Source: Elusimicrobia bacterium GWA2_69_24 (GTDB lineage Bacteria; Elusimicrobiota; Elusimicrobia; UBA1565). Taken from it: 64,000 nt of DNA. Position 1 is the stretch's first letter, and every line of letters starts with the position of its first letter. The notes under the pieces were generated by a model. That model did not search any database. It had not been told where the DNA came from and saw nothing but the letters and a program-made list of their open reading frames with translations. Of this stretch, positions 11,316-45,290 are shown piece by piece. Made by a program: the position numbers and the translations under genes. Location of the stretch: assembly GCA_001799695.1 (NCBI GenBank), contig MGTY01000130.1:52504-116503 (forward strand). Reading direction: 5' to 3'.

Positions 11316-13252
11316 TGCGCGCGGTAATCCTCTCCCTGGCGGCGTGCCTGGCCGTCGCTATCGCGGTCTATGCGAATTCCCTCCACAACCCCTTCGTGTT
11401 CGACGACGTGGGGGACATCGTCGACAACGCGGACATCCGGAAGCTCGACAACCTGCGCACGAAGCTCTTCGCCCCGTTCGGGGGCAAGGACACCCCGTAC
11501 TACCACCGCAACGACCCCTCCCGCGCCATCACCTACCTCACCTTCACCCTGAACTATCATTTCGGCGGGCTCGACCCGTTCGGCTACCACCTGTTCAACA
11601 TGCTCCTGCACGCTCTGTGCGCCTGCGGGGTCCTGCTGCTGGCCCGGCGCATCACCGTGCGGATACTGGGCTCCCCCTCCGTCTGGATCCCCCTCATGGC
11701 CGGGCTGTTCTTCGCGGCGCATCCCGTCAATACGGAGGCCGTGACCTACATCTACCACCGGTCGGAGGGCCTGGCCCTGCTCTTCTTCCTGGCCGCCTTC
11801 CTCACCTTCGACGCCTCGGTCGAGCGGAAGGGGGCCTGGCTGCCGATATCACTGGCCTGCTTCGCCTTGGCTTTGCTCTCCAAGCAGACCTCGGCCACGC
11901 TCCCCCCCATGCTCCTGCTCTACGATCTCACGGTCCTGAGCGACTGCCGCTGGGACGGGATCCGCTCGCGGCGCTGGCGCCATCTCGCCTACTGGGCCGT
12001 ACTCGCCGCCCACCTGGCCTTCTCCCGTTTCTATCTCGGCGGTCTAGCCGACCGCGAACTCGATGCTTTCGCCAAGTGGACCCGATTTTCCTATCTGTCC
12101 ATCCAGCCCTTCGTTCTCCTGCGCTATCTGCAGCTCCTGGTCTTCCCTTCCGGCCTCTGCATCGACCACGCGATCGACGTCCCGCGCTCCTGCCTCGAGT
12201 TCCGGGTCTGGGCCCCATTTGTGGCCGCAATGGCCTCACTTTCCTGGCTCCTGGCGGCCTTCCGGCGGCGCACCCCGGACGCCCGGCTCTGGGCCTTTTG
12301 CGCCTCCTGGATGCTGCTGGGATTGGCCCCCACCTCGAGCCTGATGCCGATACTCGACGCCATGGCCGACCGGCGGCTCTACCTGCCGGGATTCGGCTTC
12401 CATCTGGCCCTCGCCTTCGCCTATGTCCGGGTCTTCCGTCCCGAAGGCAAGGGCTCCTCCGGACGGCGCCGGATCATGATCGCCCTGGCGGGCGGCCACA
12501 TACTCGCCCTCGGTGTGGCCACTTTGGCCCGCAATAGGGTATACGCCGACACCGTCCTCATCTGGCAGGATGTCGTCGCCAGCTATCCGCGCAACCACCG
12601 GGCGCACAACAACCTGGCGAACGCCTACTACGACCGGGGCGACTTCGACCGCGCTCTAGAGCACTACCGAGCCGCCCTGGCCATCGATCCCTCCTACGCG
12701 GGCAGCTACACCAACCTGGGGAACATCTACCTGGCGCGGGGAGACGACTCCGCCGCCTTCGGCTGGTACCAGAAGGCCGTCGCGGTCAATCCCACGATCG
12801 CGGGGCTGCACGTGAACCTGGGCAACATCTATTATCGGCGGGGCGAGCCGGACCGCGCCCTGGCCGAATTCCGCCAAGCGGCCCGCCTCGACCCCAACTA
12901 CGCCGAGGCGCGCTACAGCATGGGGCTCGCCCTCGAGGCCAAGAAGGACCTGGCCGCGGCCCGGGCCGAGTACCAGGCCGCCCTGGACTTGAAAGCCGAC
13001 CTGCCGGACGCCCACAACAACCTGGGCCGGCTCCTATTCCTGGCCGGCCGGCATGCCGAGGCCGAGCAGGCCTACCGCCGCGCGCTGGCGCTCCAGCCGG
13101 TTAACGCGGGGGCCCACTACAACCTCGGCCTGCTCCTCGAGGCCCTGGGGCGGCGCGAGGCGGCCCTGGCCGAGTACCGGGAGACGCAGCGTCTGGAACC
13201 GGCCAACGCCTGGGCCGCGCGCCGCAGCGAAGCCCTCGGAGGGAAACATTGA
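11315..13252 (+). CDS. TMTC/PMT-like polytopic membrane protein with a C-terminal TPR array
   Basis: N-terminal motif YANSLHNPFVFDDVGDIVDN, typical of TMTC-like TPR membrane proteins. Multiple hydrophobic helices, then six or more TPRs (AHNNLANAYYDRGDFDRALEHYRAALAIDPSYA ...). The GTG start shares one base with the upstream TAG. Confidence 0.8.
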   Translation: MRAVILSLAACLAVAIAVYANSLHNPFVFDDVGDIVDNADIRKLDNLRTKLFAPFGGKDTPYYHRNDPSRAITYLTFTLNYHFGGLDPFGYHLFNMLLHALCACGVLLLARRITVRILGSPSVWIPLMAGLFFAAHPVNTEAVTYIYHRSEGLALLFFLAAFLTFDASVERKGAWLPISLACFALALLSKQTSATLPPMLLLYDLTVLSDCRWDGIRSRRWRHLAYWAVLAAHLAFSRFYLGGLADRELDAFAKWTRFSYLSIQPFVLLRYLQLLVFPSGLCIDHAIDVPRSCLEFRVWAPFVAAMASLSWLLAAFRRRTPDARLWAFCASWMLLGLAPTSSLMPILDAMADRRLYLPGFGFHLALAFAYVRVFRPEGKGSSGRRRIMIALAGGHILALGVATLARNRVYADTVLIWQDVVASYPRNHRAHNNLANAYYDRGDFDRALEHYRAALAIDPSYAGSYTNLGNIYLARGDDSAAFGWYQKAVAVNPTIAGLHVNLGNIYYRRGEPDRALAEFRQAARLDPNYAEARYSMGLALEAKKDLAAARAEYQAALDLKADLPDAHNNLGRLLFLAGRHAEAEQAYRRALALQPVNAGAHYNLGLLLEALGRREAALAEYRETQRLEPANAWAARRSEALGGKH

Positions 13253-18613: not shown

Positions 18614-18645
18614 ATATCCATCTTACCAAAGCCGGGCGGAGGGCC

Positions 18646-18667
18646 GACTCTGTCCAGACAGAGTTGC
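18646..18667. repeat. Palindromic repeat copy 1 (GACTCTGTCCAGACAGAGTTGC)
   Basis: 8-bp arms ACTCTGTC/GACAGAGT around a central CA. Lies 16 nt downstream of the HNH gene stop. Confidence 0.8.
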
Positions 18668-18682
18668 GGGGTTCATTCGGCT

Positions 18683-19726
18683 TCACCCCTTGCGGGGTCC
18701 GAACACCTGCCGCGCAGCGTGCTGGTTGTGGGTACGGCACAGGAGCCGGATGTTGGCCGGGTCGTCCGAGCATCCACCCAAAGCCCAAGGGAGAAGGTGG
18801 TCGAATTCGAGCCACTCCGTCGCCTCGCAGCGCCGCCCATCCCGGGCTACGAAGGCGCAGCGTCCGCCATCCCGGCTCCAGACCTCATCTTGAACACCTT
18901 GGGGGATCCGCCGTGACGACCGGCTCGGCCGCACCCCTCTCTTTCTCGCGTGGGTTCGCCTCCGGGCCGCTTTCCGGGCGATCCTCCGGCGCGGGTCCCG
19001 CGCATCCAGCAGCGATTCGATCGCTTCACCGACGACGTCCTCCAGGCGACCAACGGGATACTTATGCCGGAGCAGACCCTTCGCCAGTTCGATCCGCGCG
19101 AGCAGGTGTTCCGACGCCGTAAAACTGATGCGTACCAGACGGTTCGGCACCGTGGCCTGGGAGGCTTGCGCTGGAGCATCAGGCGGGGAGGGCGGGTCGG
19201 GCGGCGCCGCGGTGACGACCAATTCTGGCTGACGATCGTCGCGTGGGCCTTCAAAGTCCCCCGATTCTCCTGATGGCGGAGGCGGCAGAGCCCGGACCAC
19301 ATCCGCTTGGGGGCCAAACGGCTCGAGTTCGGCCGCGATACGCTCGACTTCCCGGCGGGTTTTCCCGCTGGCCCGAACAAGGAGTCCCTCGGCGTTCGCC
19401 TGGGTCAGATGGGGGGATAGACGGACGAGCGCGCTGAGATGGATCTCACCTCGCGCGAGCATTCCCATCGCTTGCGGGAAATCGCCTATGAGGCGCGCTG
19501 CCCGGATGCGGCAATAGGCTTCGGCCTCGGATAACCCAAGGCGTTTGGTACAGTATTCGAAGAGTGAGGGAAAACTGCGCGGCTCATGACCCCTTCGGCG
19601 ATCGAACTCGGCAAGATGCGCCAGAAAGATGACCAGGACCTGCCGCTCGCCGCTGACAAGTCTTCGGAAGCGGCTGTCGAGTTCGTCGTCCGTGAGGCTC
19701 CCGACCACGACCAATTCGCGAGGCAT
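18683..19726 (-). CDS. HNH endonuclease-domain protein with a DUF222-like N-terminal region (REP13E12-like family)
   Basis: C-terminus CAFVARDGRRCEATEWLEFDHLLPWALGGCSDDPANIRLLCRTHNQHAARQ (HNH). N-terminus LAHLAEFDRRRGHEPRSFPSLFEYCTKRLGLSEAEAYCRIRAARL is typical of DUF222. Start moved to the ATG at 19726 (MPRELVVVG). Confidence 0.8.
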   Translation of the reverse strand: MPRELVVVGSLTDDELDSRFRRLVSGERQVLVIFLAHLAEFDRRRGHEPRSFPSLFEYCTKRLGLSEAEAYCRIRAARLIGDFPQAMGMLARGEIHLSALVRLSPHLTQANAEGLLVRASGKTRREVERIAAELEPFGPQADVVRALPPPPSGESGDFEGPRDDRQPELVVTAAPPDPPSPPDAPAQASQATVPNRLVRISFTASEHLLARIELAKGLLRHKYPVGRLEDVVGEAIESLLDARDPRRRIARKAARRRTHARKRGVRPSRSSRRIPQGVQDEVWSRDGGRCAFVARDGRRCEATEWLEFDHLLPWALGGCSDDPANIRLLCRTHNQHAARQVFGPRKG

Positions 19727-19769
19727 GCCTACAAGTACGATCGACCCGCCGGAAAGTTCCCTGAATTGT

Positions 19770-19788
19770 GACTCTGTCTGGACAGAGT
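19770..19788. repeat. Palindromic repeat copy 2 (GACTCTGTCTGGACAGAGT)
   Basis: Same core as copies 1 and 3. Intergenic, between the HNH gene and the upstream hypothetical gene. Confidence 0.75.
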
Positions 19789-19887
19789 GCGGAGGCGAAG
19801 AGCACGCACCCAAAGAGATGGTCCAGATGTTATCGAACTGCCCCAAAGCGTTTGATGGTGTGCCAGCCAGGCGGGGCTACACTCAAT

Positions 19888-20817
19888 CTATTTCACTTCC
19901 CATTCCTTGGGGTCGTAGTTGTCTATGACATCCAATGCTGGGCCATAGGAGTGGCGAAAAACTTCCTCACGCAACCGCTCTATGCGCTGCTCTCGACTGA
20001 GACCTGTATCAGCCATTATCTTTCTTACCTTGGCCCGCACATCCCCGCCAATTTGTTGACCTCCGGTAGATTTGAATGTCACAGAATGACCTTTCCGAAG
20101 ATCCCCGATGATCCACGACAACACTTGTTCGCAAGCTCTCCGCTCACCTTCTGCGGCCTTCTCTTTTTCCTGCGGCGTTTCTGCATAGTCTTCCGGCAGT
20201 GGTTCCTCAGAGAAATCCAGGCCCAGCAAGATCGGTTTCCCATAATCGGCCAGATGAACATCAAGGGTTGTCGCGCCGGTCCACTTCGGATTCTGAAACA
20301 CACCTGAAGACTTGTCGAGGAATCTAATGACTTCATCCTGGACTTTCTCAAGGGGCTTGGTCTTAATACCCTCCACATACAATTTATAGGCCAGTCGAAT
20401 AGCTCGCCCAGTTTCCCTGTATGCACCCAATTGAACCTGGGTGGGTGGCGGTGGACGATTTCGTGCCTCCTCCCGTTCCAGAAGCAGTGATGGTTCCACC
20501 TGCACTCCATTCACCATTAGACGCTTACCTTGGTACTCGACCTTGTAGGGCGGGGGGATGACATGCCCATAGGCAATGACCAGCCCGGTGGTTATACCTT
20601 GGCTCTGTTTGATCGGATGGATGTCAATCTTCCTAGAACCCCTAATCCTAGTCCGCTTGATATACCGAGATAGGCCGGTGTCCGTCATCTCGGACGATTG
20701 GGCCGACATATCCCTTTCAGTCTTCGCTGGCGACTGCGCGAACAAGGGATAGGGAGTCGGAATCGTCGGCAGGAGAATCATGCTGAGTCTTAGAATATAG
20801 GCGTTCAGTGTTGTCAT
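19888..20817 (-). CDS. Hypothetical protein, low GC, possible N-terminal signal/anchor, no recognised domain
   Basis: Long ORF in a segment of about 43-50% GC. MTTLNAYILRLSMILLPTIPTPYPLFAQSPA looks signal-like. Alternative starts at 20883 and 20781. No motif recognised. Confidence 0.6.
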   Translation of the reverse strand: MTTLNAYILRLSMILLPTIPTPYPLFAQSPAKTERDMSAQSSEMTDTGLSRYIKRTRIRGSRKIDIHPIKQSQGITTGLVIAYGHVIPPPYKVEYQGKRLMVNGVQVEPSLLLEREEARNRPPPPTQVQLGAYRETGRAIRLAYKLYVEGIKTKPLEKVQDEVIRFLDKSSGVFQNPKWTGATTLDVHLADYGKPILLGLDFSEEPLPEDYAETPQEKEKAAEGERRACEQVLSWIIGDLRKGHSVTFKSTGGQQIGGDVRAKVRKIMADTGLSREQRIERLREEVFRHSYGPALDVIDNYDPKEWEVK

Positions 20818-20920
20818 GCTCAGCACTTTGAACAGTATATGTGGATTCAGATATTTGTCAACCGGACTAGCATTGGGCGGCAATTAGGCGCATCGAGGAA
20901 GCACCTAATTGACTGCGCTG

Positions 20921-20942
20921 GCAACTCTGTCTGGACAGAGTC
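20921..20942. repeat. Palindromic repeat copy 3 (reverse complement of copy 1, 22/22)
   Basis: GCAACTCTGTCTGGACAGAGTC at 20921..20942. Confidence 0.8.
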
Positions 20943-20998
20943 ACCCCCCACTTTGGCCCTCCCCCACAAGAGGGGCGGGTATCCATAAGCCGCGCCGA

Positions 20999-32958: not shown

Positions 32959-34884
32959 ATGAGCGAAGAGCACAAGCACACCGTCGAAGAGGAGTCCGAG
33001 GGCTTCCCGGACCTCGAGGCGTTCCAGGCCAGCGACCGCTCCGCGGGCGACCGGAAGAAGACCCCCGAGCAGCTGGACCGCGAATGGCTGCGGGACGTGT
33101 ACCAGGGCGACGCCCCCCAGCTCACCGTCCGCGCCGTGGTCATGGGCGCCCTGCTCGGCGGCTTCATGTCCCTGTCCAACCTCTACGTGGGCCTCAAGAC
33201 CGGCTGGGGCCTCGGCGTCGCCATCACCGCCTGCATCCTGGCCTTCGCCATCACCAAGGTCCTGCGCCTGGTGGGGATCTTCAAGACCGACATGACCATC
33301 CTCGAGAACAACGTCATGCAGACCACCGCCTCCTCCGCCGGCTACTCGACGGGCGGCACGATGGTCTCGGCCATATCCGCCTACCTGCTCATCACGGGCT
33401 CGCACATGTCCTGGCAGGTCCTGGGGGTCTGGACCCTCTTTTTGGCCCTGCTCGGGGTGATGATGGCCATCCCCATGAAGCGGCAGATGATCAACGCCGA
33501 GCAGCTGCGCTTCCCCAGCGGCGTCGCCTGCGCGGAAACGCTCAAGAGCCTCCACGCCGAGGGCGAAGCGGGGCTGCGCAAGGCCAAGGCGCTCGCCTAT
33601 GCCGGCGGCTTCGGAGCCGCCGTGGCCTGGTGCCGCGACGCAGGCATCCCGAAATTCCTGCAGATCCCGGCCCACCTGCCGTTCGGGAACCTCACGCTCG
33701 GCGGCTTCGCCCTGACCAAGTGGACCATACAGCTCGACATGAGCGCCATCATGATCGCAGCCGGAGCCATCATGGGCTGGAAGGTCTGCTGGTCGCTGCT
33801 CCTGGGCGCCTGCATCAACTACGGCATCCTGGCCCCCTGGGCTGTCAAGATCGGGGCCATCCCGATCGCCGCGGACGGGGCGGACCTGGGCTACCGGGCC
33901 ATCGTGCGCTGGAGCACCTGGGCCGGAGCCGCCATCATGGTCTCCTCCGCGCTCTTCTCATTCGCCCTGCAATGGCGTTCCATCCTGACGGTCTTCAGCG
34001 GATTCGCCGCCACCCTGGGCCTGGGGGCGAAGAAGACCGGCGCCGACCCCATGGAGGCCATCGAAGTCCCCACGAAATGGTTCCTCTGGGGGACGCTGGT
34101 CTCGGGACTCGGATGCATGGCGGTCCTCTATTTCGCCTTCGGCACGAGCTGGTGGATGAGCATCGTAGCCATCCTCATGACCTTTTTCCTCGCCGTGGTC
34201 GCCTGCCGGGTCACCGGCGAGACGGACACGACCCCCATCGGGGCCATGGGGAAGATCACCCAGCTCCTCTTCGGCGTGCTCGCTCCCGGCAACCACGTGA
34301 CGAACCTCATGACCGCGGGCGTGACCGCCGGCGCCGCCGGCTCCTCGGCGGACCTGCTGACCGGGCTCAAGACCGGCTATCTGCTGGGCGCCAACCCCCG
34401 CAAGCAGTTCCTCGCGCAGTTCTTCGGCATCTTCGCCGGGACCTTGATCGTGGTGCCGGCGTTCTACATCCTGGTCCCCGATGCCGGCGCGCTGGGCTCG
34501 GCGCAATGGCCGGCGCCTTCGGCGCAGGTCTGGGCCGCGGTCGCCCGCCTGCTCTCGGAGGGATTTACGGCTTTGCACCCGACGGCCCGCTGGGGCCTCT
34601 TCGTTGGCCTGGGCGTGGGCCTGGTCATACCTCTGCTCGAACTCGCCTTCCCGAAAGCCCGGCCCTACATCCCATCGGCCACGGGCATCGGATTGGCCAT
34701 GGTCATCCCGTTCTTCAATTCCTTTTCCATGTTCCTGGGAGCGCTCATCACGCTGTACCTGGAGAAGAAGCACGCCCAGCTCGCCGACACCTACATCGTC
34801 ACCACGGCCTCCGGCATCATCGCCGGGGAATCCCTGCTGGGGGTGTTCGTCGCCCTCCTGGCGGCGACCGGCGTGATAGGCTGA
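32959..34884 (+). CDS. OPT-family oligopeptide transporter
   Basis: [42 protein letters not shown] and [18 protein letters not shown] are typical of the OPT superfamily. Start moved to the ATG at 32959. Confidence 0.9.
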
Positions 34885-34891
34885 GGAACCC

Positions 34892-36559
34892 ATGGCCAAC
34901 ATCCTGGTAGTCGACGACGATCCGGCCTTCGCGGCGATGCTCAAGGAGTGGCTCGTCTCCTGGGGCCACTCCGTATCCACGGCCGGCAGCGTCGACACCT
35001 TCGTCAGCGCGGCGACCCTGCAGGCTCCCGCCCTCATCCTCATGGACATGCAGTTCCCCGGCGGCGGAGCCCCCGCGGCCGTCGAGAGGATCAAGTCGAA
35101 CGCCGCGCTGAACGCTCTCCCGATCATCTTCATCTCCTCGATGCCCCTGGCCCAGATCAAGCGCTGGTTCCCCGACGCGCCGCATCGCCGGCATCACTCC
35201 AAGCCGCCGGATTTCAACGCCCTGGCCAAGCACCTCGAGGAACTCCTGCCCGGCTCGACCTCGGCCCAGTCCGCGGCCCAGCTCCACCCCGCGGCCGCGG
35301 TCCAGTCCTCTTTGTCGAAGCTGTTCGAGCCGGAGATCGCCAAGACCCGCGGCGAGAAGGAGACCTCCGACGCCAAACTGGCCGCGGCGGGACGCCTGGT
35401 GGACCTGCTCATGGCGGACGCGATCAAGGCCGGGGCGAGCGACATCCACATCGACCCCGCGCCCGACACGGTGTACATCCGCTACCGCATCGACGGGATC
35501 CTCCTGGACCAGCTCACCTACCCCAAGGACCTGCCCCTGCTCGCGCGCGTGCGCTCCCAGGGCGGCCTGGCCCCCGTGGGCGCCTCCAACCCGGTCCCTG
35601 AGGAAGGGAGCTTCGACGTCTCTTCGGGCATACGCGCCCGCCTCGCCGTGTACCCTTCCGCCTACGGCGACAAGATCACCCTGCGGCTCCTGAACCGGAA
35701 CACGGGGCTGCTGAACCTGGATTCGCTGGGCTTCCTGCCCGACGATCTGAAATCGCTGCGCAAGCTCATCCATCGCCCCTACGGGATGTTCCTGGTCTCG
35801 GGGGCGACCGGCAGCGGCAAGACCACCACGCTCTGCAGCATCCTTCTGGACCAGGAGATCGGCAAGATCAACATCATGACCCTGGAAGACCCGATCGAAT
35901 ACCAGCTGCCCCGGGTCACCCACACCCAGATCTGCCCCAAGGTGGGGCTGACCTTCACCGAAGGGCTGCGCTCCATGCTGCGTCAGGACCCCAACGTCAT
36001 CATGGTGGGGGAGATCCGCGATCCCCAGACCGCCGAGATCGCGCTCCAGGCCGCCATGACGGGCCACATGATCTTCTCCTCGGTCCACGCGACCAACTCC
36101 AGCGGCGTCGTCGCCCGGCTCATCGGCATGGGCGTCGAGCCGTACATGATCAGCTCCTTCCTGCTGGGAGCCCTCTCCCAGCGGCTCATCCGGAAGGTGT
36201 GCACGCAGTGCGCCCAGCCGTCGGCCCCGGACGCCGCCCGGATCGAGAAGACGGTGACCTCCGCGGACCCTCGCCAGCGGCAGGCGCTGCAGGCGCTCTT
36301 CGCGGCGAAGGGCGGGAAATTCACGGTCGGGAAGGGCTGCCCGGCCTGCGGCGGCACGGGCTACAAGGGCCGGGTCGGGATCTACGAACTGCTGGCCATC
36401 AGCCCCGCCATCTCCGAGCTCATCCACAAGAAGGCCACCGCGGCCGAGATCCACGAGGCGGCCATCCAGGCCGGGATGCGGACCTTCCTCATGGACGCGG
36501 CCTACAAGGCCTGGGCCGGCTGGACCACCCTGGAGGAAGCCCTCCGGGTGACCGGATAA
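34892..36559 (+). CDS. GspE/PilB-family secretion ATPase with an N-terminal response-regulator receiver domain
   Basis: REC: [13 protein letters not shown]...[10 protein letters not shown]...HHSKP. ATPase: [23 protein letters not shown], Walker [22 protein letters not shown]-terminal [23 protein letters not shown] Shine-Dalgarno upstream. Confidence 0.9.
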
Positions 36560-36566
36560 GGGCGGA

Positions 36567-36589
36567 GGCGGGTCCCGAGAGGACCCGCC
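36567..36589. terminator. GC hairpin GGCGGGTCC-CGAGA-GGACCCGCC between the GspE-like gene and the orphan glgP 3' fragment
   Basis: Perfect 9-bp stem, 7 nt after the TAA at 36559. No T-tract. Its position fits a bidirectional terminator for an ancestral convergent gene pair. Confidence 0.4.
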
Positions 36590-36612
36590 CCGCGCCCGCC
36601 GCCCGGCCGCGC

Positions 36613-36798
36613 CTACGCGGCGACCGTCGCCTCTTTCCGGGCGAGCTTCCCCGGCAGATAGAGCTGGGCCACATAGTCCTTGAGCATCCGGTCCGAGCAG
36701 AACACCGGGCCCACCGTCTGTATGGACTCCTTCATGACCCGCACCCAGCCATGCGGCACGCCGTCCCGGCCCCGGTCGTAGAAGAGCGGGATGATCTG
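36613..36798 (-). pseudogene. Orphan duplicated 3' end of glgP (about 61 codons plus TAG); left direct repeat of the island
   Basis: 36614..36798 is identical to 41858..42042 except at 36751 (A vs G; synonymous CAT/CAC). Encodes ...IIPLFYDRGRDGVPHGWVRVMKESIQTVGPVFCSDRMLKDYVAQLYLPGKLARKEATVAA-stop with no upstream gene body. Confidence 0.8.
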
Positions 36799-36827
36799 CT
36801 GATGCCGCAGGATTCCTGGGGGCCAAT

Positions 36828-38129
36828 TCAGCCGGGGCCTGGGGCCCCACCTGCGGCTTTTAGTTCAATCCAAGCGCGATGGTGTTCCGTGCACGGCGCA
36901 ACTTGTCGCTGAAGTCTGTCGACCGCCTGCTCCAGCCGCAGAATCGCGGTCTGGTCGATTACTCCAGCCGTGAATCGGCGCTTCATGGATTTCAGGACTT
37001 CCGCGCCATAGAACATGAGCCTCGTCGCGCCGGAATCGTCGAACACCCGTTCTGGATTCATGGGCGGCGGATTCTCTCGTCCGTCAACATGCCAACATAG
37101 CCAAGGATAGTTCTCTAGGAACTCCGCGAGCTTGACGAGGATGTCCTGGCAGAGCTTGCGGTCCAGACGAACGACTCGCGCCCGCGCCGGACCTTGGAAC
37201 CTGGAAGGCTTGTCGAAAACCTTAGCCAGCAAAGCATCCAGGGCCATACCCGCCTCGCCTCCCTTGGTGACGATGGTCGGGGACCCCTCCCAGAATCGGG
37301 CTCCGTCACCCCGATTGCGTTGTCTCGCGCGGAGACGGGAAGCCTGGTCCATACGGGAATCGAGTTCGCCCAAGAATCCCTGGACCCCGATTGGCCGTTC
37401 CTGTCGATGGAGTTCGCGCAGGCGATTCTCCAAGGCCTTACGCCTCTCACGGTCAGCGGGGCGCCAGGACATTCGAATAATCTTCTTCAAGGTTTCGATG
37501 TGATGGAATTTCTCCGTGGGAACGCGATCCAGGATGGCCTTTGCCGCTTTGACCTGCTTCAAATCATCGAAGATGTGCCCGAGATAAATGAGCGCTCTCC
37601 AATAATCAGGTTTTAATTCGATGGCGTGTTCAATCGGCGCAATCGCCTCTCGGGCGCCCTTCAGGCGATGAAGCGCGGCCCCTAGGCCCATCCACGAGGA
37701 CTCATGATTTGGGTCGATCTCTACCGCCTTGCGATAGAGACGAACCGCGTGCTCATACCGGCGGTGCTCATAGAGCAGGTACCCGAAACTGTTCGCGGTT
37801 TCCGCGGCGGGCCCCGGCAGCGCCATCACCGCTTCAATGCACGACAGCGCCTCAGAGAACCGGCCCAGGTTGACATACGCCTTGGCCAGATTCGCCAGGA
37901 CCGTATCCCAACAGGGATGGGCCCTGCGCAGCGGCTCCAGGAGGGCGCAGGCGTTCGGATAGTCGCCCATCCTATTGTGCGCGCGGGCCAATCCAAGCTG
38001 AAGGGCCGCACTCGCTGGGAAGTGAATAAGCCCGTCTTTGAAAGATTTGATGGCCTTTTCCGGGCATCCCTCGGCAAGGGCCTGGTCTCCCAGACGCCCG
38101 TACCCTACCTCGTCTCGGTTCGTCATCAT
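36828..38129 (-). CDS. TPR-repeat protein with an uncharacterised C-terminal domain (433 aa)
   Basis: N-terminal TPRs (AIKSFKDGLIHFPASAALQLGLARAHNRMGDYPNA..., AVRLYRKAVEIDPNHESSWMGLGAAL, IEHAIELKPDYWRALIYLGHIF). C-terminal about 230 aa without a recognised motif. Its ATG overlaps the TGA of the upstream gene. Confidence 0.75.
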   Translation of the reverse strand: MMTNRDEVGYGRLGDQALAEGCPEKAIKSFKDGLIHFPASAALQLGLARAHNRMGDYPNACALLEPLRRAHPCWDTVLANLAKAYVNLGRFSEALSCIEAVMALPGPAAETANSFGYLLYEHRRYEHAVRLYRKAVEIDPNHESSWMGLGAALHRLKGAREAIAPIEHAIELKPDYWRALIYLGHIFDDLKQVKAAKAILDRVPTEKFHHIETLKKIIRMSWRPADRERRKALENRLRELHRQERPIGVQGFLGELDSRMDQASRLRARQRNRGDGARFWEGSPTIVTKGGEAGMALDALLAKVFDKPSRFQGPARARVVRLDRKLCQDILVKLAEFLENYPWLCWHVDGRENPPPMNPERVFDDSGATRLMFYGAEVLKSMKRRFTAGVIDQTAILRLEQAVDRLQRQVAPCTEHHRAWIELKAAGGAPGPG

Positions 38130-39769
38130 GTGTCTCCTGGCGATACGGTGGACAGCACCGGGACACCGCCGCGGATAACGATGTACCGCAAGACTGGCCC
38201 ACCCAGAGGGCCGAGTCCGACGACAAGACCATCGCGGCCCTCAGCATAAGCTCCTTTCTTACGGAGACGAAACACCTGCCGAGCCCGCCAGGGTCCATCA
38301 GTCTCATGCCGCGCCTTATTGAGACAGATTCTCTGCCCTTTGCTCAAGTCGTCCCTCGCCTGGTCGTGTTCTGTCGGCGGCGAATAGGATAAGGCGTCGC
38401 TGCAGTATTCATCGATTGGCAGGTATCCCTTCCAACGGGAAGGAACCTCCCCAGCCCATTTTGCAGCACTTTGACCACGAAACCGCTTCCTCAATGCGGC
38501 AGGTGACAACGGCTCAAGGCGGAGGCAAACTCCGCCGACCCGCGCCTCTGATACGATGAAATCGTCCCAACAGGATTGCTCTGCCAGTTTGGCGAGGCGA
38601 TTCCATGACACATGGCCGGTGCCCTGACGCTTCGCGCGCTCGCGCCATCTGCGCAGAAAATGGGCCAGTTCCGGCTCAAGTAGCTTCGCCATTATTATGG
38701 CGCAGCCTAGAGTCAATAGGTAGGCGAGGAGGTGGTCGCGACTCTCCGTGACAACGCAGACACGACCACCCGCTGCCTTGGCCTGATTATGCAGGAGCGC
38801 AAGAAACAAGAACGGGCGCAGGGCGCCCTTGCCGCTGCCGAAAATCCTGCCGAGAACGATGAAGCATCGCTTGCCGCCGATCCAGCGTCCGCAATCATCA
38901 ATATATCGCTCGCTCCTGAGCAATACACGGAGATGCTCGATGCTCTCAAACGGTGAGCTAGCCACCACCGCGGTCGAGGTTGTTCCTATCTCGCCGCCGC
39001 CGATGATTTCACTCACCTCCGTGTTGATCTGTGGCCGGCGTTCCGCCGCGATGAAGGGAAGCCGCGCTCTGATGTCAAGGAACGAAAATCCCGGCAAGGG
39101 CTTTCGGTCCCAACGGAGAATCATGAGCCGCTCCAGCGCCCGCGGATCGCCATGTTGCTGCAGAGGGATTGATGTCCAAAGTTTGTGGGCTTCACGGCGA
39201 TCGCCGGCATCGAAGCGGAGGTGCCCAAGATACGAGATCGCCTGGACGTGGCGCGGTGCCCGTTCGAGCAGGCGGCGCAGGATGCCTTCTGCAAATCGGG
39301 GATGCCCGGCCCGGTGCAGGGTCGCCGCCAGCCCCATGGCGGCGTTTTCGTCATCGGCCCGCAAGCGCAGACATGCTCCATACGCCCGCACGGCAGGCGT
39401 CTTCTGCCTAGCCCGGAAAAGCTCCTCCGCCGCCGACAACGCATCATTCGGGGTGAGGTCGGGGGCATCCAACAATCGCGCCAGCGTATTCGCGGCTTCC
39501 CGGGGCAATCCAAGTCGCACCTCGGCAACCATAAGTCCGCAGAGAACATTGGCGTTTCTTGGAAGTTTCTGAAGAAGCGCAAGAAAGCGCTCGCGCCCGC
39601 CGGCGATCTCGCCCCCATACAGAAGGCACAACGCCTCTGAGAGCAGCAAGCCCGTATCGCCGGGGAAACGCGCCAAGCCCTCGCGGGCGACACGAAGACC
39701 TTCATCATATTGCCCCGCGGCAAACAACGCGGGGCAGCGGCGCTCGTACTCATCGCTTGTCTGGAACAT
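38126..39769 (-). CDS. TPR-like repeat protein with a large uncharacterised C-terminal domain (547 aa)
   Basis: N-terminal about 220 aa of TPR-like helical repeats (GQYDEGLRVAREGLARFPGDTGLLLSEALCLLY..., AEGILRRLLERAPRHVQAISYLGHLRF). C-terminal about 320 aa not recognised; it contains FGSGKGA and VVTESRD strings of uncertain meaning. Confidence 0.75.
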   Translation of the reverse strand: MFQTSDEYERRCPALFAAGQYDEGLRVAREGLARFPGDTGLLLSEALCLLYGGEIAGGRERFLALLQKLPRNANVLCGLMVAEVRLGLPREAANTLARLLDAPDLTPNDALSAAEELFRARQKTPAVRAYGACLRLRADDENAAMGLAATLHRAGHPRFAEGILRRLLERAPRHVQAISYLGHLRFDAGDRREAHKLWTSIPLQQHGDPRALERLMILRWDRKPLPGFSFLDIRARLPFIAAERRPQINTEVSEIIGGGEIGTTSTAVVASSPFESIEHLRVLLRSERYIDDCGRWIGGKRCFIVLGRIFGSGKGALRPFLFLALLHNQAKAAGGRVCVVTESRDHLLAYLLTLGCAIIMAKLLEPELAHFLRRWRERAKRQGTGHVSWNRLAKLAEQSCWDDFIVSEARVGGVCLRLEPLSPAALRKRFRGQSAAKWAGEVPSRWKGYLPIDEYCSDALSYSPPTEHDQARDDLSKGQRICLNKARHETDGPWRARQVFRLRKKGAYAEGRDGLVVGLGPLGGPVLRYIVIRGGVPVLSTVSPGDT

Positions 39770-39784
39770 CCCGCATCCCCCAAA

Positions 39785-39812
39785 GGCGGGTCAAAAGAAT
39801 CCCGCCTTTTTT
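39785..39812 (+). terminator. Intrinsic-terminator-like hairpin GGCGGG-N10-CCCGCC followed by TTTTTT
   Basis: Stem at 39785..39790 and 39801..39806, T6 at 39807..39812. The U-tract is on the plus strand only, yet no plus-strand gene ends upstream, so its role is unclear. Confidence 0.35.
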
Positions 39813-39855
39813 AGGTCCCGGTTGTCGGTCGGGGCCAAGTTTGACGACAAAGTCC
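39810..39855 (+). repeat. Direct repeat copy 1 (TTTAGGTCCCGGTTGTCGGTCGGGGCCAAGTTTGACGACAAAGTCC)
   Basis: About 85% identical, with small indels, to 39923..39965. Lies in the divergent intergenic region between the TPR operon and the R-M operon. Confidence 0.6.
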
Positions 39856-39922
39856 AGCCTGTGTCGGAGTTCCCAAAAAATACGGAACCCCGATTCCAAG
39901 GTGGAACCAGGGTCTACGTCGC

Positions 39923-39965
39923 TTTAGGTCCCGTTTAGGCCGGGGCCAAGTTGACCTTAAAGTCC
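39923..39965 (+). repeat. Direct repeat copy 2 (TTTAGGTCCCGTTTAGGCCGGGGCCAAGTTGACCTTAAAGTCC)
   Basis: See copy 1. Followed by a 7-bp-stem hairpin GCTGAGA/TCTCAGC at 39970..39989. Confidence 0.6.
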
Positions 39966-40187
39966 CACCGCTGAGAAACAGCTCTCAGCCTATTAACTTT
40001 AACAGGAATCCCTGGATTTTCAAGACCCAGAGAAGACCTGGACATCGGGGGCCTCATCGCCGCCGGAAGGGTCGATAACACACATGGCACGGTTCGCCTG
40101 GGAATGATAAAATGCGGCAAGGGAACTATTTTGATGCTCAATCGTATAAGAGGGGTCCCCCATGGTTCCGGCAAGGAGGAAAAAGCC

Positions 40188-41108
40188 ATGAGCATGAACG
40201 TTCCCCATCCCATACCGTATCAAGGCAGTAAGAGAAACCTAGCGGATCGTATTCTAAGGTGCTTCCCTGCCAGGGTGGAAACCCTTTTTGAGCCTTTTGC
40301 CGGTTCGGCGGCCGTCTCATTAGCCGCAGCCGCGCAAAGGAAGGCCAAACGATTCCACATCAATGACCTAAACAAGCCGCTGATCGATCTCTGGCGCGAA
40401 ATTGTGAACACCCCCGAGCAGCTCGCGGAGGCGTACGAAACTCTTTGGCATTTGCAGCTCAATGAACCTAGGACCTACTATAAGGCCATCCGCGAGAAAT
40501 TCAATCTAACGGGACGACCGGATTATTTCCTCTACCTTCTAGCCAGATGTGTCAAAGCCTCAGTGCGCTATAACTCGAATGGGGAATTCAATCAGAGCCC
40601 GGATAATCGTCGCAAAGGTACATTGCCGACAACCATGAGGGAACAGATTGCCGACGCGTCGTTCTTATTGAAAGGCCACACCGCATTCTCTTCCCAAAAC
40701 TACCGAGATGTTGTGCTGCACGCCAACAGGAACGATTTGATTTATATGGACCCCCCATATCAGGGGGTTTGCGGGAACCGTGACACGCGCTATCTTGCCA
40801 GCGTTCAATTCTGCGAATTTGTCAGTGTTCTGGAAGAACTTAATTCCAGGCAAATCAAATATATTGTCAGCTATGATGGCCGCACCGGCAACAAGGTGCA
40901 TGGTCGTCTTTTGCCCGAGCATCTAAGGCTAACCCATATGGAGTTGCAGGCGGGGCGCTCCTCTCAGGCGACACTTCTTGGCAGAAAGGACGCCACTTTT
41001 GAATCCCTTTATCTTTCTCCCGGATTGTCTGAAGAGCTCAAGGCGTCTGGGATGGCATACGACCTCCTCCCCAGCAAGCAGCTGTGCTTTTTGGATTCGA
41101 GACCATGA
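40188..41108 (+). CDS. D12-class N6-adenine DNA methyltransferase (Dam-like)
   Basis: PYQGSKRNLADRIL, FEPFAGSAAVSL (SAM-binding FxGxG-type motif), catalytic DPPYQG. AAGGAGG Shine-Dalgarno 8 nt upstream of the ATG at 40188. Confidence 0.9.
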   Translation: MSMNVPHPIPYQGSKRNLADRILRCFPARVETLFEPFAGSAAVSLAAAAQRKAKRFHINDLNKPLIDLWREIVNTPEQLAEAYETLWHLQLNEPRTYYKAIREKFNLTGRPDYFLYLLARCVKASVRYNSNGEFNQSPDNRRKGTLPTTMREQIADASFLLKGHTAFSSQNYRDVVLHANRNDLIYMDPPYQGVCGNRDTRYLASVQFCEFVSVLEELNSRQIKYIVSYDGRTGNKVHGRLLPEHLRLTHMELQAGRSSQATLLGRKDATFESLYLSPGLSEELKASGMAYDLLPSKQLCFLDSRP

Positions 41109-41827
41109 ACAAGGCAAGATTACCCAAAGAATTCGTGCGGCTATGCAAAAAGGTAACTGCCAAGCGTCCTCGCACGGTCATCGAGCACATCCTCAAACAT
41201 GGCTTCATAACGACCCAACAGTTGAAAGATAGGTACGGTTATAATCACCCTCCTCGGGCCGTCCGCGATGTCAAGGAGAATGGAATCCCAATCGAGATGT
41301 TCCGCGTGGAAGGCACGGATGGCCGCAAAATCGCAGCCTACCGGTTCGGCGACTACAAAAAGGCTCGGTTTGGGAAGTTTGCAGGCCGCACAGCGTTCAC
41401 CAAAGAACTAAGACGACATCTCGTCAGGCTCAATGGCGCAAGGTGCGCCATTTATCTTGAACCATTCGATGAACGCGATCTGCAAATCGACCACCGGATT
41501 CCCTTTGAAGTGTCCGGCGACCAGCCCGAAGAGGGGAGTAAGGCCGCGGACTTTATGCTGCTGTGCGGCTCCGCCAATCGCGCCAAGTCCTGGTCTTGCG
41601 AACACTGCGCAAACTGGCGTGCCCAGAAAGAACCGCATATCTGCCGCTCATGTTACTGGGCCTACCCAGACAATTACTCGCACATTGCCATGCGTCCGCT
41701 TCGACGATTGGATCTCATGTGGACGGGCAATGAAGTTCAGTCCTATGAGCAATTGAAGAAGAAATCGGAAGAACTTCAACAAACGATGCCCGCCTACGTT
41801 AAGCGCGTTATCGAGAAGAATCTGTAG
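41105..41827 (+). CDS. HNH-type endonuclease, probable cognate type II restriction enzyme
   Basis: LQIDHRIPFEVSGD...LLCGSANRAKSWSCEHCANW...CRSCYWAYP (HNH plus Cys-rich zinc motifs). Its ATG overlaps the methyltransferase TGA (ATGA). Specificity unknown. Confidence 0.75.
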   Translation: MNKARLPKEFVRLCKKVTAKRPRTVIEHILKHGFITTQQLKDRYGYNHPPRAVRDVKENGIPIEMFRVEGTDGRKIAAYRFGDYKKARFGKFAGRTAFTKELRRHLVRLNGARCAIYLEPFDERDLQIDHRIPFEVSGDQPEEGSKAADFMLLCGSANRAKSWSCEHCANWRAQKEPHICRSCYWAYPDNYSHIAMRPLRRLDLMWTGNEVQSYEQLKKKSEELQQTMPAYVKRVIEKNL

Positions 41828-41856
41828 TCGGGCATACGAACCTTCCCAGGCCTCCC

Positions 41857-44001
41857 TTACGCGGCGACCGTCGCCTCTTTCCGGGCGAGCTTCCCCGGCA
41901 GATAGAGCTGGGCCACATAGTCCTTGAGCATCCGGTCCGAGCAGAACACCGGGCCCACCGTCTGTATGGACTCCTTCATGACCCGCACCCAGCCGTGCGG
42001 CACGCCGTCCCGGCCCCGGTCGTAGAAGAGCGGGATGATCTGTTCCTCCAGCACATCGTAGAGACCCTGGGCGTCCGCGTCGTCGCGCTCTCCCTCCGGC
42101 AGGTGCGTGGTCGCCTTGGGCGCCCAGCCGTTCTGCCGGTTGTAGCCCTCCTCCCACCAGCCATCGAGGATGCTGAGGTTGGGGACCCCGTTGACCGCCG
42201 CCTTCTGGCCGCTGGTGCCGCAGGCCTCCAGGGGAGCGAGCGGGTTATTGAGCCAGAGGTCCACCCCGGAGACGAGGTAGTGGGCCTTGTGCATGTCGTA
42301 GTCCTCGACGAAGGCGATGTGCCCGCCGATCTCCGGATCCTTGGCCAAGTTGTACACCTGCTGGATGAGCTTCTTCCCGCCGTCGTCGGCCGGATGGGCC
42401 TTGCCCGCGAACACGAGCTGCACGGGCCGCCACGGGTCGAGCAGGAGCTGGCGCAGGCGCCCGAGGTCGCGCAGGATGAGGGTAGCCCGCTTGTAGGGCG
42501 CGAAGCGCCGGGAGAACCCGATGGTGAGGGCGTCCGGGTCCAGCATGGAGCCGTGCGCCAGGACCTGCATCGGGTCGATCCGGTCGCGCATCCAGCGCGC
42601 GCGCACCTGGGAGCGGATGAAGTTCATGAGGTCGTGCTTGCGCCGGGCGTGATGCTCCCACACCGCCTCGTCCGGGACCTTGGCGATCCTGGCCCACATC
42701 GCCGGGTCGTCCTGCCGTTCCTTCCAGTCTTTGCCCAGATGCAGGTCATAGACCTCGGCCATGGACTGACAGACCCAGGTGGGCAAGTGCACCCCGTTGG
42801 TGACGTGGGTGATGGGGACCTCCGCCGCGGGTCGGCCCTCGTAGAGCTTGCGCCACATCTTCCGGCAGACCTCGCCATTGGGGCGACTCACCCCGTTGGT
42901 CCGCCCGGCCAGGCGCAGCGCCAGGGCGGTCATGTTCCAGCCGTCCTCGCCCGGCACCCGGGCGAGGCCCATGAAGGCCTCCCGGTCGAGCCCCAGGGAG
43001 GGCCAGAAGTCCTTGAAGTACTCCTCGATGAGCGGCTCTTCGAACACGTCGTGCCCGGCCTCCACCGGCGTATGCGTCGTGAACACCACCTCTCCGGAGA
43101 GCACGCGCCGCGCCTCCGCGAAGCTCCGACCCTGCGCCACGAGCTCGCGCAGGCGCTCCAGGAGCATGAACGCTGCATGGCCTTCGTTGATGTGGAACAG
43201 GCGGATGTCCAGCCCGAGCTCGCGCAGGACGCGCAGACCGCCCATGCCCAGGACGATCTCCTGACGCAGGCGGGTGCTGCGGTCGCCGCCGTAGAGCCGG
43301 TTGGAGACCTCCCGGTCGCGCAGGTCGTTGCCCTCCACGTTGGTGTCCATCAGGATGAGCGGTACCCGGCCGACCTGGACGCGCCAGACCGCGATCTTGA
43401 GGTGCCAGCCGCCGATGTCCAGGGTCAGCACGCAGGGGCTGCCGTCGGGCCGGCACGCGGGCCGCACGGGAGAGGAGGCGCGGTCGAGGCGCTCGTAGTG
43501 GTTCTGCTGCCAGCCCTCGATGCCGAGCCGCTGCTGCACATAGCCCTCGGGATACATGAAGCCCACGCCCGCCAGGGGCACTCCGAGGTCGGAGGCCGTC
43601 TTGCAGTGGTCGCCGGCGAGTATGCCGAGGCCGCCGGAGTAGATGGGCAGGGACTGGTGCACGCCGAACTCGGCCGAGTAGTAGGCGATCATGCCCTGAT
43701 GCTCGGGGTGGCTGCGCTTGAACCAGGTCGCGCGGTCCGGGGCCGTGTATTCCTCGAACTGGGCGATGACGGAGTCATAGGCCTGCAGGAAGGCGGGGTC
43801 CTTGGCCCGGTCGCGCAGATCCGCGGCCCGCATCTTCCCCAGCATGCGCACGGGGTTGTGGTTGGTCTCGCGCCAGAGCGTCATGTCCATGCTCTTGAAC
43901 AGGGCCCGGGCGCTGGGGTTCCAGGTCCACCACAGGTTGTAGGCGACGTCCTCGATGCGTCCGATGCGCTGGGGCAGCTTGCCGGTCTCGTTTCCTGCCA
44001 T
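41857..44001 (-). CDS. glgP: Alpha-glucan (glycogen/maltodextrin) phosphorylase, GT35 family
   Basis: MAGNETGKLPQRIGRIEDVAYNLWWTWNPSARALF...YYSAEFGVHQSLPIYSGGLGILAGDH...FSRRFAPYKRATL...EACGTSGQKAAVNG. AAGGAG Shine-Dalgarno 7 nt before the ATG at 44001. Alternative ATG at 44019. The 1013-aa track ORF over-extends upstream. Confidence 0.9.
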   Translation of the reverse strand: MAGNETGKLPQRIGRIEDVAYNLWWTWNPSARALFKSMDMTLWRETNHNPVRMLGKMRAADLRDRAKDPAFLQAYDSVIAQFEEYTAPDRATWFKRSHPEHQGMIAYYSAEFGVHQSLPIYSGGLGILAGDHCKTASDLGVPLAGVGFMYPEGYVQQRLGIEGWQQNHYERLDRASSPVRPACRPDGSPCVLTLDIGGWHLKIAVWRVQVGRVPLILMDTNVEGNDLRDREVSNRLYGGDRSTRLRQEIVLGMGGLRVLRELGLDIRLFHINEGHAAFMLLERLRELVAQGRSFAEARRVLSGEVVFTTHTPVEAGHDVFEEPLIEEYFKDFWPSLGLDREAFMGLARVPGEDGWNMTALALRLAGRTNGVSRPNGEVCRKMWRKLYEGRPAAEVPITHVTNGVHLPTWVCQSMAEVYDLHLGKDWKERQDDPAMWARIAKVPDEAVWEHHARRKHDLMNFIRSQVRARWMRDRIDPMQVLAHGSMLDPDALTIGFSRRFAPYKRATLILRDLGRLRQLLLDPWRPVQLVFAGKAHPADDGGKKLIQQVYNLAKDPEIGGHIAFVEDYDMHKAHYLVSGVDLWLNNPLAPLEACGTSGQKAAVNGVPNLSILDGWWEEGYNRQNGWAPKATTHLPEGERDDADAQGLYDVLEEQIIPLFYDRGRDGVPHGWVRVMKESIQTVGPVFCSDRMLKDYVAQLYLPGKLARKEATVAA
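41858..42042 (-). repeat. Right 185-bp direct repeat (3' end of the intact glgP)
   Basis: Identical to 36614..36798 apart from one synonymous mismatch (41995). Confidence 0.9.
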
Positions 44002-44015
44002 GGGTCTCTCCTTGT

Positions 44016-45290
44016 TCATGCGGGCGGGGACAACCGGGCTTTCGCCTCGGCCACCGCCTCCTTCGTGCCGATGAGCGCGACGCGGTCCCCGGCGCGCAGA
44101 CGCACATCCCCGCGCGGCACGATGACCGCGCCTCTGCGGATGAGGGTCCCGATCACGACCTGCCGGGGGAGACCGCAGCCGCGGATCTCCTGGCCTATGA
44201 GGGGCGAGGCGGGGTCGGCGGTCACGTGCGCGATGAGGCCGCCGCCCTGCCGGACGTCGCGGGCGAGGGCTTCCGCCTGCTCGACCTCGCGGACCGCCTC
44301 CTGCATATCGTCGTAGAGGTCCTGCTCGCCCACGATCTCGGTCCCCAGCAGGGCCTCCAGCACGTCCTCGAGAGTGACGACGCCGATCCACCGGCCCTGG
44401 CCGTCGCGTACGCAGAACAGATGCTGCTTCTTCTGGATGAAAAGGTTGAGCAGGTCGTGGGCCGGCAGGGAATCGGCGATGAATACGGGGGGGTGCATGA
44501 GGTCGCGCATGGTCAGCGCGTCGTTGCCCGCGAGGAGGCTGAGGTAGACGTCGCGGCGCTGGACCACGCCCACGATCCGATCCGGGGCGTCGTCCCGGCA
44601 GACCGGGATGCGGCTGAAGCGCCAATGGTCCGCGTCCACCTTGGTCATGCTCAAGGGCAGGGCATCCGGGACCCGGCGCACCACGCTCGCGGGGGTCATG
44701 ATGTCGTCGGTGCGGAGCCGGTCCAGATGCAGGGCGTTGACGATCCAGCGGGCCTCCTGGGCCCGGAGCACCCCCCCCTGGAGGCTCATGGTCGCCAGGC
44801 TGATGATGTCGTCCTTGGGGACCGCCACGATGTGGGGATGCCGGCCGAACATCCCGGTGATCGCGGTCAAGAGCTTGACCAGCGGCCAGAATGTCCACAC
44901 CATCGCCCGCAGGGGCCAGGCGCAGTAGGGCGCCAGACGGTTGGCGTATTTCGTCCCCAGGGTCTTGGGGATGATCTCGCCGACCAGGAGTATCCCCAGC
45001 GTCATGCCCGCCGAGAAGAACCCCACCAGGTCGCTGTGGAAACGATCCCCGACCAGGACGCCGATCCAGGTCGCTCCGCCGGTATTGACCAGCGTGTTGA
45101 CCAGGAGGATGGCGGTTATCGGCTCGTCCATCCGGTCGCGCAGGTCCGCCAACAGCGCCCCGCGCCGGTCCCCCTGGCGCTTGAGGGTCTCGATGCGGGC
45201 GCGGCTCACGGAATAGAAGGTCGCCTCCAGCACGGAGCAGCTGAAGGATACGAGGAAGCAGAGCAGGATGAGGAGGACGACCAGCGCCAT
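44016..45290 (-). CDS. CNNM/DUF21-family membrane protein with a CBS pair and a C-terminal RCK_C (TrkA_C) domain
   Basis: DUF21 region MALVVLLILLCFLVSFSCSVLEATFYSVS...GEIIPKTLG. CBS pair (DIMTPASVV..., RIVGVVQRRDV..., WIGVVTLEDVLEALLG). C-terminus LIGQEIRGCGLPRQVVIGTLIRRGAVIVPRGDVRLRAGDRVALIG is typical of TrkA_C. Confidence 0.85.
   Translation of the reverse strand: MALVVLLILLCFLVSFSCSVLEATFYSVSRARIETLKRQGDRRGALLADLRDRMDEPITAILLVNTLVNTGGATWIGVLVGDRFHSDLVGFFSAGMTLGILLVGEIIPKTLGTKYANRLAPYCAWPLRAMVWTFWPLVKLLTAITGMFGRHPHIVAVPKDDIISLATMSLQGGVLRAQEARWIVNALHLDRLRTDDIMTPASVVRRVPDALPLSMTKVDADHWRFSRIPVCRDDAPDRIVGVVQRRDVYLSLLAGNDALTMRDLMHPPVFIADSLPAHDLLNLFIQKKQHLFCVRDGQGRWIGVVTLEDVLEALLGTEIVGEQDLYDDMQEAVREVEQAEALARDVRQGGGLIAHVTADPASPLIGQEIRGCGLPRQVVIGTLIRRGAVIVPRGDVRLRAGDRVALIGTKEAVAEAKARLSPPA

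Follow-up and report, generated by a model that had tools for sequence, protein, structure and literature searches.

The 3′ end of glgP, the alpha-glucan phosphorylase gene of Elusimicrobia bacterium GWA2_69_24, carries an island of foreign DNA in which a predicted Type II restriction–modification (R–M) gene pair lies beside two large genes for tetratricopeptide repeat (TPR) proteins. The island was analysed within a stretch of 64,000 nucleotides (referred to as the window; GenBank assembly GCA_001799695.1, contig MGTY01000130.1, positions 52,504 to 116,503 of the forward strand), to which all coordinates below refer. The event that distinguishes the filled from the empty locus is defined to the base: 5,059 bp were inserted, 185 bp of target were duplicated and nothing was lost. 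Quite probably, a foreign R–M/TPR segment entered the 3′ end of glgP and duplicated its target in the process, as in the class of events known as ‘insertion with long target duplication’. Judged from their sequence, both copies of the resulting repeat are host DNA, to which the insert adds a single base, the T that turns the stop codon TAG into TAA.

The two direct repeats (36614–36798 and 41858–42042) agree at 184 of their 185 positions, a length that, at 99.5% identity, is far beyond chance. Read on the minus strand, each copy corresponds to the last 61 codons of GlgP, and their sole mismatch, A at 36751 in the left copy and G at 41995 in the right one, is a synonymous change between the histidine codons CAT and CAC. 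The left copy ends in TAG (CTA at 36613–36615) and the right copy in TAA (TTA at 41857–41859), the latter because base 41857 belongs to the insert. A first-pass annotation, made from the letters of the window, had described this anatomy in the same terms, namely near-identical repeats with one silent substitution and different stop codons, a right copy continuous with the intact gene and a left copy left as an orphan beyond a GspE-like gene and its hairpin; sequence comparison bears out each of these points. The left copy thus retains the native stop codon together with the A variant, and the right copy serves as the functional 3′ end of glgP (41857–44001, minus strand, 714 amino acids, Pfam DUF3417 and Phosphorylase), which is intact and forms the right host flank. 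A scan of positions 34000–45000 of the window returned these two copies of the repeat and no inverted repeats at the ends of the island; contigs with the empty site hold one copy.

The empty site itself was recovered from sister strains of the same groundwater project. Exact-protein look-ups gave contigs of the population from other samples and assemblers; the insert-free contigs were reached through two variant proteins in the 90%-identity cluster of GlgP. Contigs L183, L184 and L185, from three samples and three assemblies, read CNNM–glgP–single repeat–hairpin–GspE and correspond, base for base save 4–9 single-nucleotide polymorphisms (SNPs), to window positions 45049 to 41858 joined to 36613 to 35766, the SNPs at 43033, 43401 and 43708 being common to all three. 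The inserted segment (36799–41857) is absent from them, with nothing lost or added, and their single copy of the repeat, with TAG as its stop codon and G where the two copies differ, equals the right copy of the window over 185 nt and the left copy save for the SNP. This is the arrangement that the first-pass annotation had foreseen for an unoccupied locus, with the GspE-like gene, the hairpin and glgP adjacent. No empty site was found among species-level relatives in GTDB, where 80 glgP loci encode GlgP proteins at most 68% identical and lack downstream synteny; the closest GlgP proteins among GTDB species representatives, from metagenome-assembled genomes (MAGs) of Elusimicrobia, are 59–68% identical. 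Metagenome contigs of the Joint Genome Institute (JGI), scanned for exact matches to the initial 39 nt of the repeat, yielded none.

The filled arrangement is reproduced as well. Contigs L002/L090 (JGI) run from the left flank across the left repeat and cover most of the island, L087 (an NCBI MAG contig, DNYI01000225.1) spans the endonuclease gene, the right repeat and glgP, and the island contigs L091 and L092 span both inner boundaries, so that the junctions recur in at least four independent assemblies and each of the four repeat boundaries is crossed (L002, L087, L091, L092). These contigs bear on the possibility of an assembly artefact, in which strain variants or the contig of another organism would have been collapsed or chimerically joined at the shared 185 nt. 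All data are short-read metagenome assemblies and several contigs (L003, L004, L086, L088) break within the repeat, but a true repeat that exceeds k would cause breaks at precisely these places. The last 127-mer of L004 is 36614–36740, which is common to both copies, and L088 (Logan, k = 31) terminates exactly at 41858, a coincidence on which no reading is placed. Moreover, contigs from different assemblers and samples cross all four boundaries, the two copies differ at the SNP and the stop codon and are therefore distinct loci, and a low-GC fragment of another organism would not bear 185 nt of this very glgP at both of its ends. An artefact is therefore extremely unlikely, and mis-assembly, the hazard to its own reading that the first-pass annotation had named, can hardly account for junctions found in L002/L090, L087, L091 and L092. 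As a separate observation, the protein cluster tables also record a longest contig of 125,860 bp for GlgP, for the GspE-like protein and for the first TPR protein in a shorter gene call, with an NCBI source listed for GlgP and the GspE-like protein only, which suggests a further assembly of the filled allele.

By composition, the inserted DNA is foreign to its host. Its mean GC content is 57.4%, against 67–70% in the flanks, and falls from about 60% in the half that holds the TPR genes to 51–53% in the R–M half, the lowest 500-nt windows reaching 50%. The break is sharper at third codon positions, where GC (GC3) is 0.59–0.68 in the four island genes and 0.92–0.95 in six flanking genes. The clearly lower GC content reported in the first-pass annotation is thus real, although the range of 47–55% given there describes the right half only; its broader claim of a recently acquired island without a recombinase at the 3′ end of glgP is upheld by the foreign composition together with the empty site in L183–L185. 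The insert appears to be composite, since the TPR genes never accompany the R–M genes elsewhere, and to have come from a donor of roughly 55–60% GC.

The 61 repeated codons of glgP behave differently from the insert: their GC3 is 0.93, as in the host, and it is because of this value and of the match with the empty-site copy that both repeat copies are regarded as host sequence. The same two facts speak against the central proposal of the first-pass annotation, namely an element that integrates site-specifically and supplies a replacement 3′ end, inasmuch as the single copy of the unoccupied locus is already identical to the right copy. Its fallback, a trans-mobilised island or one acquired by recombination, lies closer to the evidence than the site-specific reading. 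A decayed or trans-mobilised island of the integrase type, whose integrase has been lost or resides elsewhere, would have its model in e14 and phage 21, which occupy icd of E. coli (Hill, Gray and Brody 1989; PMC13626634). The likeness is one of gross anatomy: around e14, as here, the 3′ end of a protein gene is the target, an intact gene lies at one end (icd) and an orphan C-terminal fragment at the other (icdC), the gene is not disrupted, and there is an allele without the insert in which a single gene is restored. The differences weigh more heavily. As a prophage, e14 has a site-specific recombination system of its own and brings a non-native icd end, so that its two icd ends differ, amino acid substitutions included (PMC13626634), whereas in the glgP island both copies are native, the copy joined to the gene body being identical to the empty-site sequence with host codon usage and one element-supplied base. 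In addition, the 5 kb contain no recombinase, excisionase, or gene of a phage or an integrative and conjugative element (ICE), no tRNA is present, and the homologous R–M cassettes examined elsewhere do not lie beside integrases. This alternative is accordingly very unlikely.

The absence of mobility genes, asserted in the first-pass annotation and upheld here, covers the genes of the island (TPR, TPR, methyltransferase and restriction endonuclease) and tRNAs across the whole window: Pfam, NCBIfam and PADLOC searches of the island open reading frames (ORFs) returned no recombinase, transposase, excisionase, phage or ICE gene, no tRNA was found in the 64 kb, and the island has no match in Rfam. 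A classical transposon, or a unit flanked by insertion sequences, was considered and rejected, as terminal inverted repeats and a transposase are lacking and the duplication measures 185 bp and not 2–15 bp.

The right half of the island holds what its motifs and library matches predict to be an intact Type II R–M gene pair. The first gene (40188–41108, plus strand) encodes a putative N6-adenine DNA methyltransferase of the Dam family (D12 class; 306 amino acids) with DPPY and FxGxG-type motifs, which matches Pfam MethyltransfD12 (3.5e-38), PADLOC MTase_II (2.5e-81), NCBIfam TIGR00571 (129.6 bits, for a cut-off of 114.85) and the structures of E. coli Dam in the PDB (about 1e-12). The second (41105–41827, plus strand), which overlaps the first by 4 nt, encodes a putative HNH-type restriction endonuclease of 240 amino acids (PADLOC REase_II, 1.3e-56); no Pfam family matched it, and its 5,831 homologues include several annotated as HNH endonucleases. 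It conserves the invariant D129–H130 and the cysteines C165, C168, C180 and C183, and both proteins are full length against more than 100 homologues. The first-pass annotation had rightly seen accessory-type genes in the island and had missed that a complete Type II R–M system is among them. As to the sequence recognised, GATC is rarer than expected in the island as a whole (13 observed, 29 expected), with the deficit in the TPR half and not in the R–M genes; a search for recognition sites revealed no consistent avoidance of a palindrome across six homologous cassettes, and palindrome counts gave no clear signal. A GATC 2 nt from the inner repeat boundary and a CATG created by the SNP of the left copy are both within chance and were not used.

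R–M systems flanked by long target duplications were described in Helicobacter pylori (2000) and later surveyed across genomes (Furuta, Abe and Kobayashi 2010, NAR 38:2428, PMC2853133). The published definition calls for R and M genes within an insert shorter than 20 kb that is not linked to another mobile element, for flanking repeats of more than 30 bp, and for a single copy of the repeat in an insert-free genome of the same species; the repeats reported range from 46 to 423 bp and occur with all types of R–M systems, and for the mechanism, which was not demonstrated, the authors suggest double-strand breakage (PMC2853133). The glgP island agrees with this definition in each of these points, with R and M genes inside 5,059 bp, a repeat of 185 nt, one copy of it in L183–L185, no mobility genes in the island and no tRNA in the window. 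It further resembles the published insertions in that the insert is short and of deviating GC content, the long repeats are near identical, with a single copy in a relative, and their length falls within the range on record; in some published cases, too, the repeats and the 3′ end of a neighbouring gene overlap (H. influenzae, Figure 3 legend, PMC2853133). It differs in its host, an uncultured member of the Elusimicrobia, whereas the published cases come mainly from Proteobacteria, plus Thermus, cyanobacteria and actinobacteria, many of them naturally competent; in the two large TPR genes beside the R–M pair; and in that both alleles were met within one natural population and, most likely, within one sample, and not between sequenced isolates.

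Homologous methyltransferase–endonuclease (M–R) cassettes, with 68–79% amino acid identity, occur in Marinimicrobia, Verrucomicrobia, Planctomycetota and others, where they lie between unrelated housekeeping or defence genes, and also on 5–7 kb plasmids of Hymenobacter and Aeromonas. Because it is found in unrelated chromosomal contexts and on plasmids, the cassette behaves as a horizontally moving R–M module, whose DNA similarity to the window is limited to the two ORFs (40193–41823). The DNA of the island has no match among PLSDB plasmids. A screen for flanking repeats, which covered 36 homologous R–M loci with enough flank, provides two further cases to describe. In L154, a 61-nt direct repeat (8966–9026 and 12017–12077, 93% identity, 3,051 nt apart; the same element is present in L153) encloses the M–R cassette and a DUF4238 gene. 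This element directly follows an ApeA (HEPN) defence gene, precedes a gene for an alpha/beta hydrolase and provides a second candidate for a long-target-duplication insertion of this R–M family. In L125 the repeats measure only about 30 nt and a third copy lies nearby. Members of this R–M family have thus occasionally arrived by long target duplication, which is no built-in property of the family. On another contig with a homologous cassette (L093, unrelated to the glgP locus), a VapB/VapC (PIN) pair lies in a 66-nt repeat (94% identity, 9120–9185 and 9974–10039) that duplicates the ribosome-binding site and first codons of a downstream glycoside hydrolase family 4 gene, and looks like a long target duplication around a toxin–antitoxin module, not an R–M system.

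Under the favoured explanation, an insertion with long target duplication, no site-specific recombinase would have been involved, and illegitimate recombination of the break-repair type would have joined the two ends of the incoming DNA to positions in the target that lie 185 bp from each other. glgP would have been kept intact by a right copy that reaches a stop codon, the last base of which came from the insert; a random base at 41857 would give a stop codon half of the time. The A at 36751 would most simply reflect a G:C>A:T mutation that arose afterwards in the left copy, which no longer has a function. Once formed, the 185-bp repeats would be substrates for homologous recombination, by which the island could be deleted and, in principle, also be amplified or restored from an excised circle, and post-segregational killing by the R–M pair would oppose its loss. 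Homology-facilitated illegitimate recombination, reportedly described by de Vries and Wackernagel in 2002 for natural transformation, is similar in that foreign DNA is said to be integrated without a dedicated recombinase, by recombination of the host, at joints whose homology is short or patchy; it is said to differ in having a one-sided homologous anchor and normally no long target duplication, whereas the glgP locus offers no foreign anchor and both copies are of the host. The amplification and loss of R–M systems with post-segregational killing, studied in the Kobayashi laboratory (references 84–85 in PMC2853133), has in common with the glgP island an R–M pair between long direct repeats and, here, a presence/absence polymorphism; it differs in that no tandem junction or circle occurs in the glgP-island contigs retrieved.

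How the two alleles are distributed can be followed through the assemblies. The exact methyltransferase protein occurs in only four of them, none of which is an assembly that yielded L183–L185, and therefore, as far as the assemblies show, the samples of these three contigs contain only the empty allele. In ERZ27254745 (k = 141), by contrast, contigs L003, L092 and L086 share the 141-mer 36610–36750 and then diverge, L092 continuing with A into the island and L086 with G through the repeat into an intact glgP that encodes the same protein as the glgP of the window. A genome with the filled allele only would be unbranched at k = 141, because the identical stretch measures only 137 nt; the branching therefore suggests that this sample most likely contains both alleles. 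The distinct glgP haplotype common to the three empty contigs favours an old insert-free lineage, and the empty junction of L086, which lies on the haplotype of the filled strain, could represent an excision or a recombinant.

These alleles also bear on a Campbell-type integration, in which a circle carrying a 3′ fragment of glgP (with TAA and the A variant) crossed once, by RecA-type recombination, within 36614–36750 of a recipient glgP. Such a crossover between a native TAG…G and an element-borne TAA…A gives TAG…A on the left and TAA…G on the right, exactly as seen; an empty junction on a haplotype encoding the GlgP of the filled strain is present in the same sample (L086); the island is 100% identical in all assemblies, against 3–6 SNPs per 12 kb in the flanks; and the hypothesis has been stated in the literature (PMC2853133). 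The circle could have been released in a sibling cell when the two repeats recombined; this corresponds to a ‘release and re-invasion’ step. Against these points, the scheme presupposes an earlier target duplication and so explains the spread of the island and not its origin; one later mutation in the orphan copy accounts for the SNP equally well; the circular or tandem junction (end of the endonuclease gene, repeat, end of the first TPR gene) is found in no contig retrieved; and zero SNPs in 5 kb is not significantly below the 1–2 expected. Integration of this type is consequently improbable as an account of the locus. With similar reserve, it seems rather doubtful that recombinase-free release of the R–M system, uptake by sibling cells and re-integration at glgP are currently active in the aquifer population. 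The released circle would carry the R–M pair, the TPR genes and one glgP fragment, and would re-integrate by homologous crossover; such a cycle would be in keeping with the TAG..A/TAA..G pattern and with the presence, in the same sample, of an empty junction on the glgP haplotype of the filled strain.

Several considerations weigh against an insertion with long target duplication. The empty alleles could be deletions by repeat recombination and not the ancestral state, and a crossover in the 137-nt stretch would indeed yield exactly the TAG…G empty allele that is observed. A flanking repeat was found at only 3 of the 36 R–M homologue loci, among which L153 and L154 represent the same element. 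The TPR genes are unexplained cargo that is not found with the M–R cassette elsewhere. The joining mechanism, finally, is not observable from sequence and is inferred here as in the literature; just outside the repeat, the ends of the insert agree with the target at 6 of 9 and 6 of 11 bases, hardly more than chance would give.

The TPR half of the island consists of two genes on the minus strand that are treated as cargo. TPR1 (36828–38129, 433 amino acids, matched by Pfam TPR families) combines an N-terminal TPR array with a conserved all-helical C-terminal domain, an architecture found again in its AlphaFold2 model (mean predicted local distance difference test score 79.7), for which Foldseek matched only TPR scaffolds. 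It has only two full-length homologues, of about 52% identity, and the genes next to the homologue in L100 are uninformative. TPR2 (38126–39769, 547 amino acids) is a paralogue of TPR1 over its first ~220 amino acids (BLASTP 26% identity, E = 2e-14, colinear from residue 1) and differs from it in its orphan C-terminal domain. No homologue of TPR2 was found in a search of 5.8 billion proteins, and the best HMMER match of its C-terminal domain among 1.84 billion representatives was marginal (6.7e-9). No PADLOC defence-system model matched either protein. The C-terminus of TPR1 (GGAPGPG, 36831–36851) extends 1–4 residues beyond its two homologues and is unlike them, and no more than 29 nt separate its stop codon from the boundary of the repeat; tentatively, the donor DNA may therefore have been broken at the original 3′ end of the gene or inside it.

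Between the divergent TPR and R–M operons lies an intergenic region of 418 bp (39770–40187, 54% GC). It contains two imperfect direct repeats of about 45 nt (39810–39855 and 39923–39965; TTTAGGTCCCG..GGGGCCAAGTT.GAC..AAAGTCC), 110–113 nt apart, which have no match in Rfam and whose motif occurs nowhere else in the window; a regulatory role is conceivable, as is an origin as a leftover of the donor context. Promoter-like and terminator-like sites were no commoner than in shuffled sequence, and a small ORF in the intergenic region is featureless.

The left host flank is formed by the GspE-like gene (34892–36559, plus strand), which encodes a secretion ATPase with an N-terminal receiver domain (Pfam T2SSE, 2e-98; Response_reg, 2.9e-12) and is convergent with glgP. 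Between the convergent genes, at 36569–36591, the sequence reads as a hairpin with a perfect 9-bp stem and a 5-nt loop (GGCGGGTCC CGAGA GGACCCGCC), probably a terminator shared by both genes; it is unchanged in the empty-site contigs, and the left repeat copy starts beyond it, 53 nt past the stop of the GspE-like gene. Where the island is present, this native hairpin no longer follows glgP, and transcripts leaving glgP would enter the restriction endonuclease gene, which ends 30 nt away (41828–41857), in antisense; such read-through might influence the expression of the endonuclease.

Two further irregularities were noted in the surroundings. A second patch of low GC content (18641–20947, 53–61% against about 68%) holds, on the minus strand, genes for a 387-amino-acid protein with a weak C-terminal HNH match (18683–19846) and for a 331-amino-acid protein of no family (19888–20883). 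A perfect 18-nt palindrome, ACTCTGTCYRGACAGAGT, of which no copy is expected by chance, is present three times (at 18647, 19771 and 20924), bounding and separating the two genes, and the patch may be another acquired segment with boundaries resembling repetitive extragenic palindromic (REP) sequences. On the other side of glgP, contig L087 matches the window without a difference between 41650 and 47304 and is wholly divergent from 47305, its diadenylate cyclase gene having a different 5′ end (385 against 389 amino acids) and being preceded by a ferredoxin gene instead of an aconitase gene; this is either a structural polymorphism or a chimeric contig end.

The glgP island reveals neither a new kind of mobile element nor a new mechanism; it exemplifies a mode of arrival of R–M systems that has already been described. 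It provides a base-resolved case of the entry of an R–M system into a genome without a mobility gene, in an uncultured bacterium of a candidate phylum, and it extends the known taxonomic range of long-target-duplication insertions to the Elusimicrobia. Public reads are available from samples with one, the other or both alleles, which makes excision, amplification and re-integration directly testable. If release and re-integration did prove to be active in the aquifer, the locus would be the first to give evidence, from a natural population, of ‘release and re-invasion’, which are steps in the virus-like life cycle that has been hypothesised for R–M systems.

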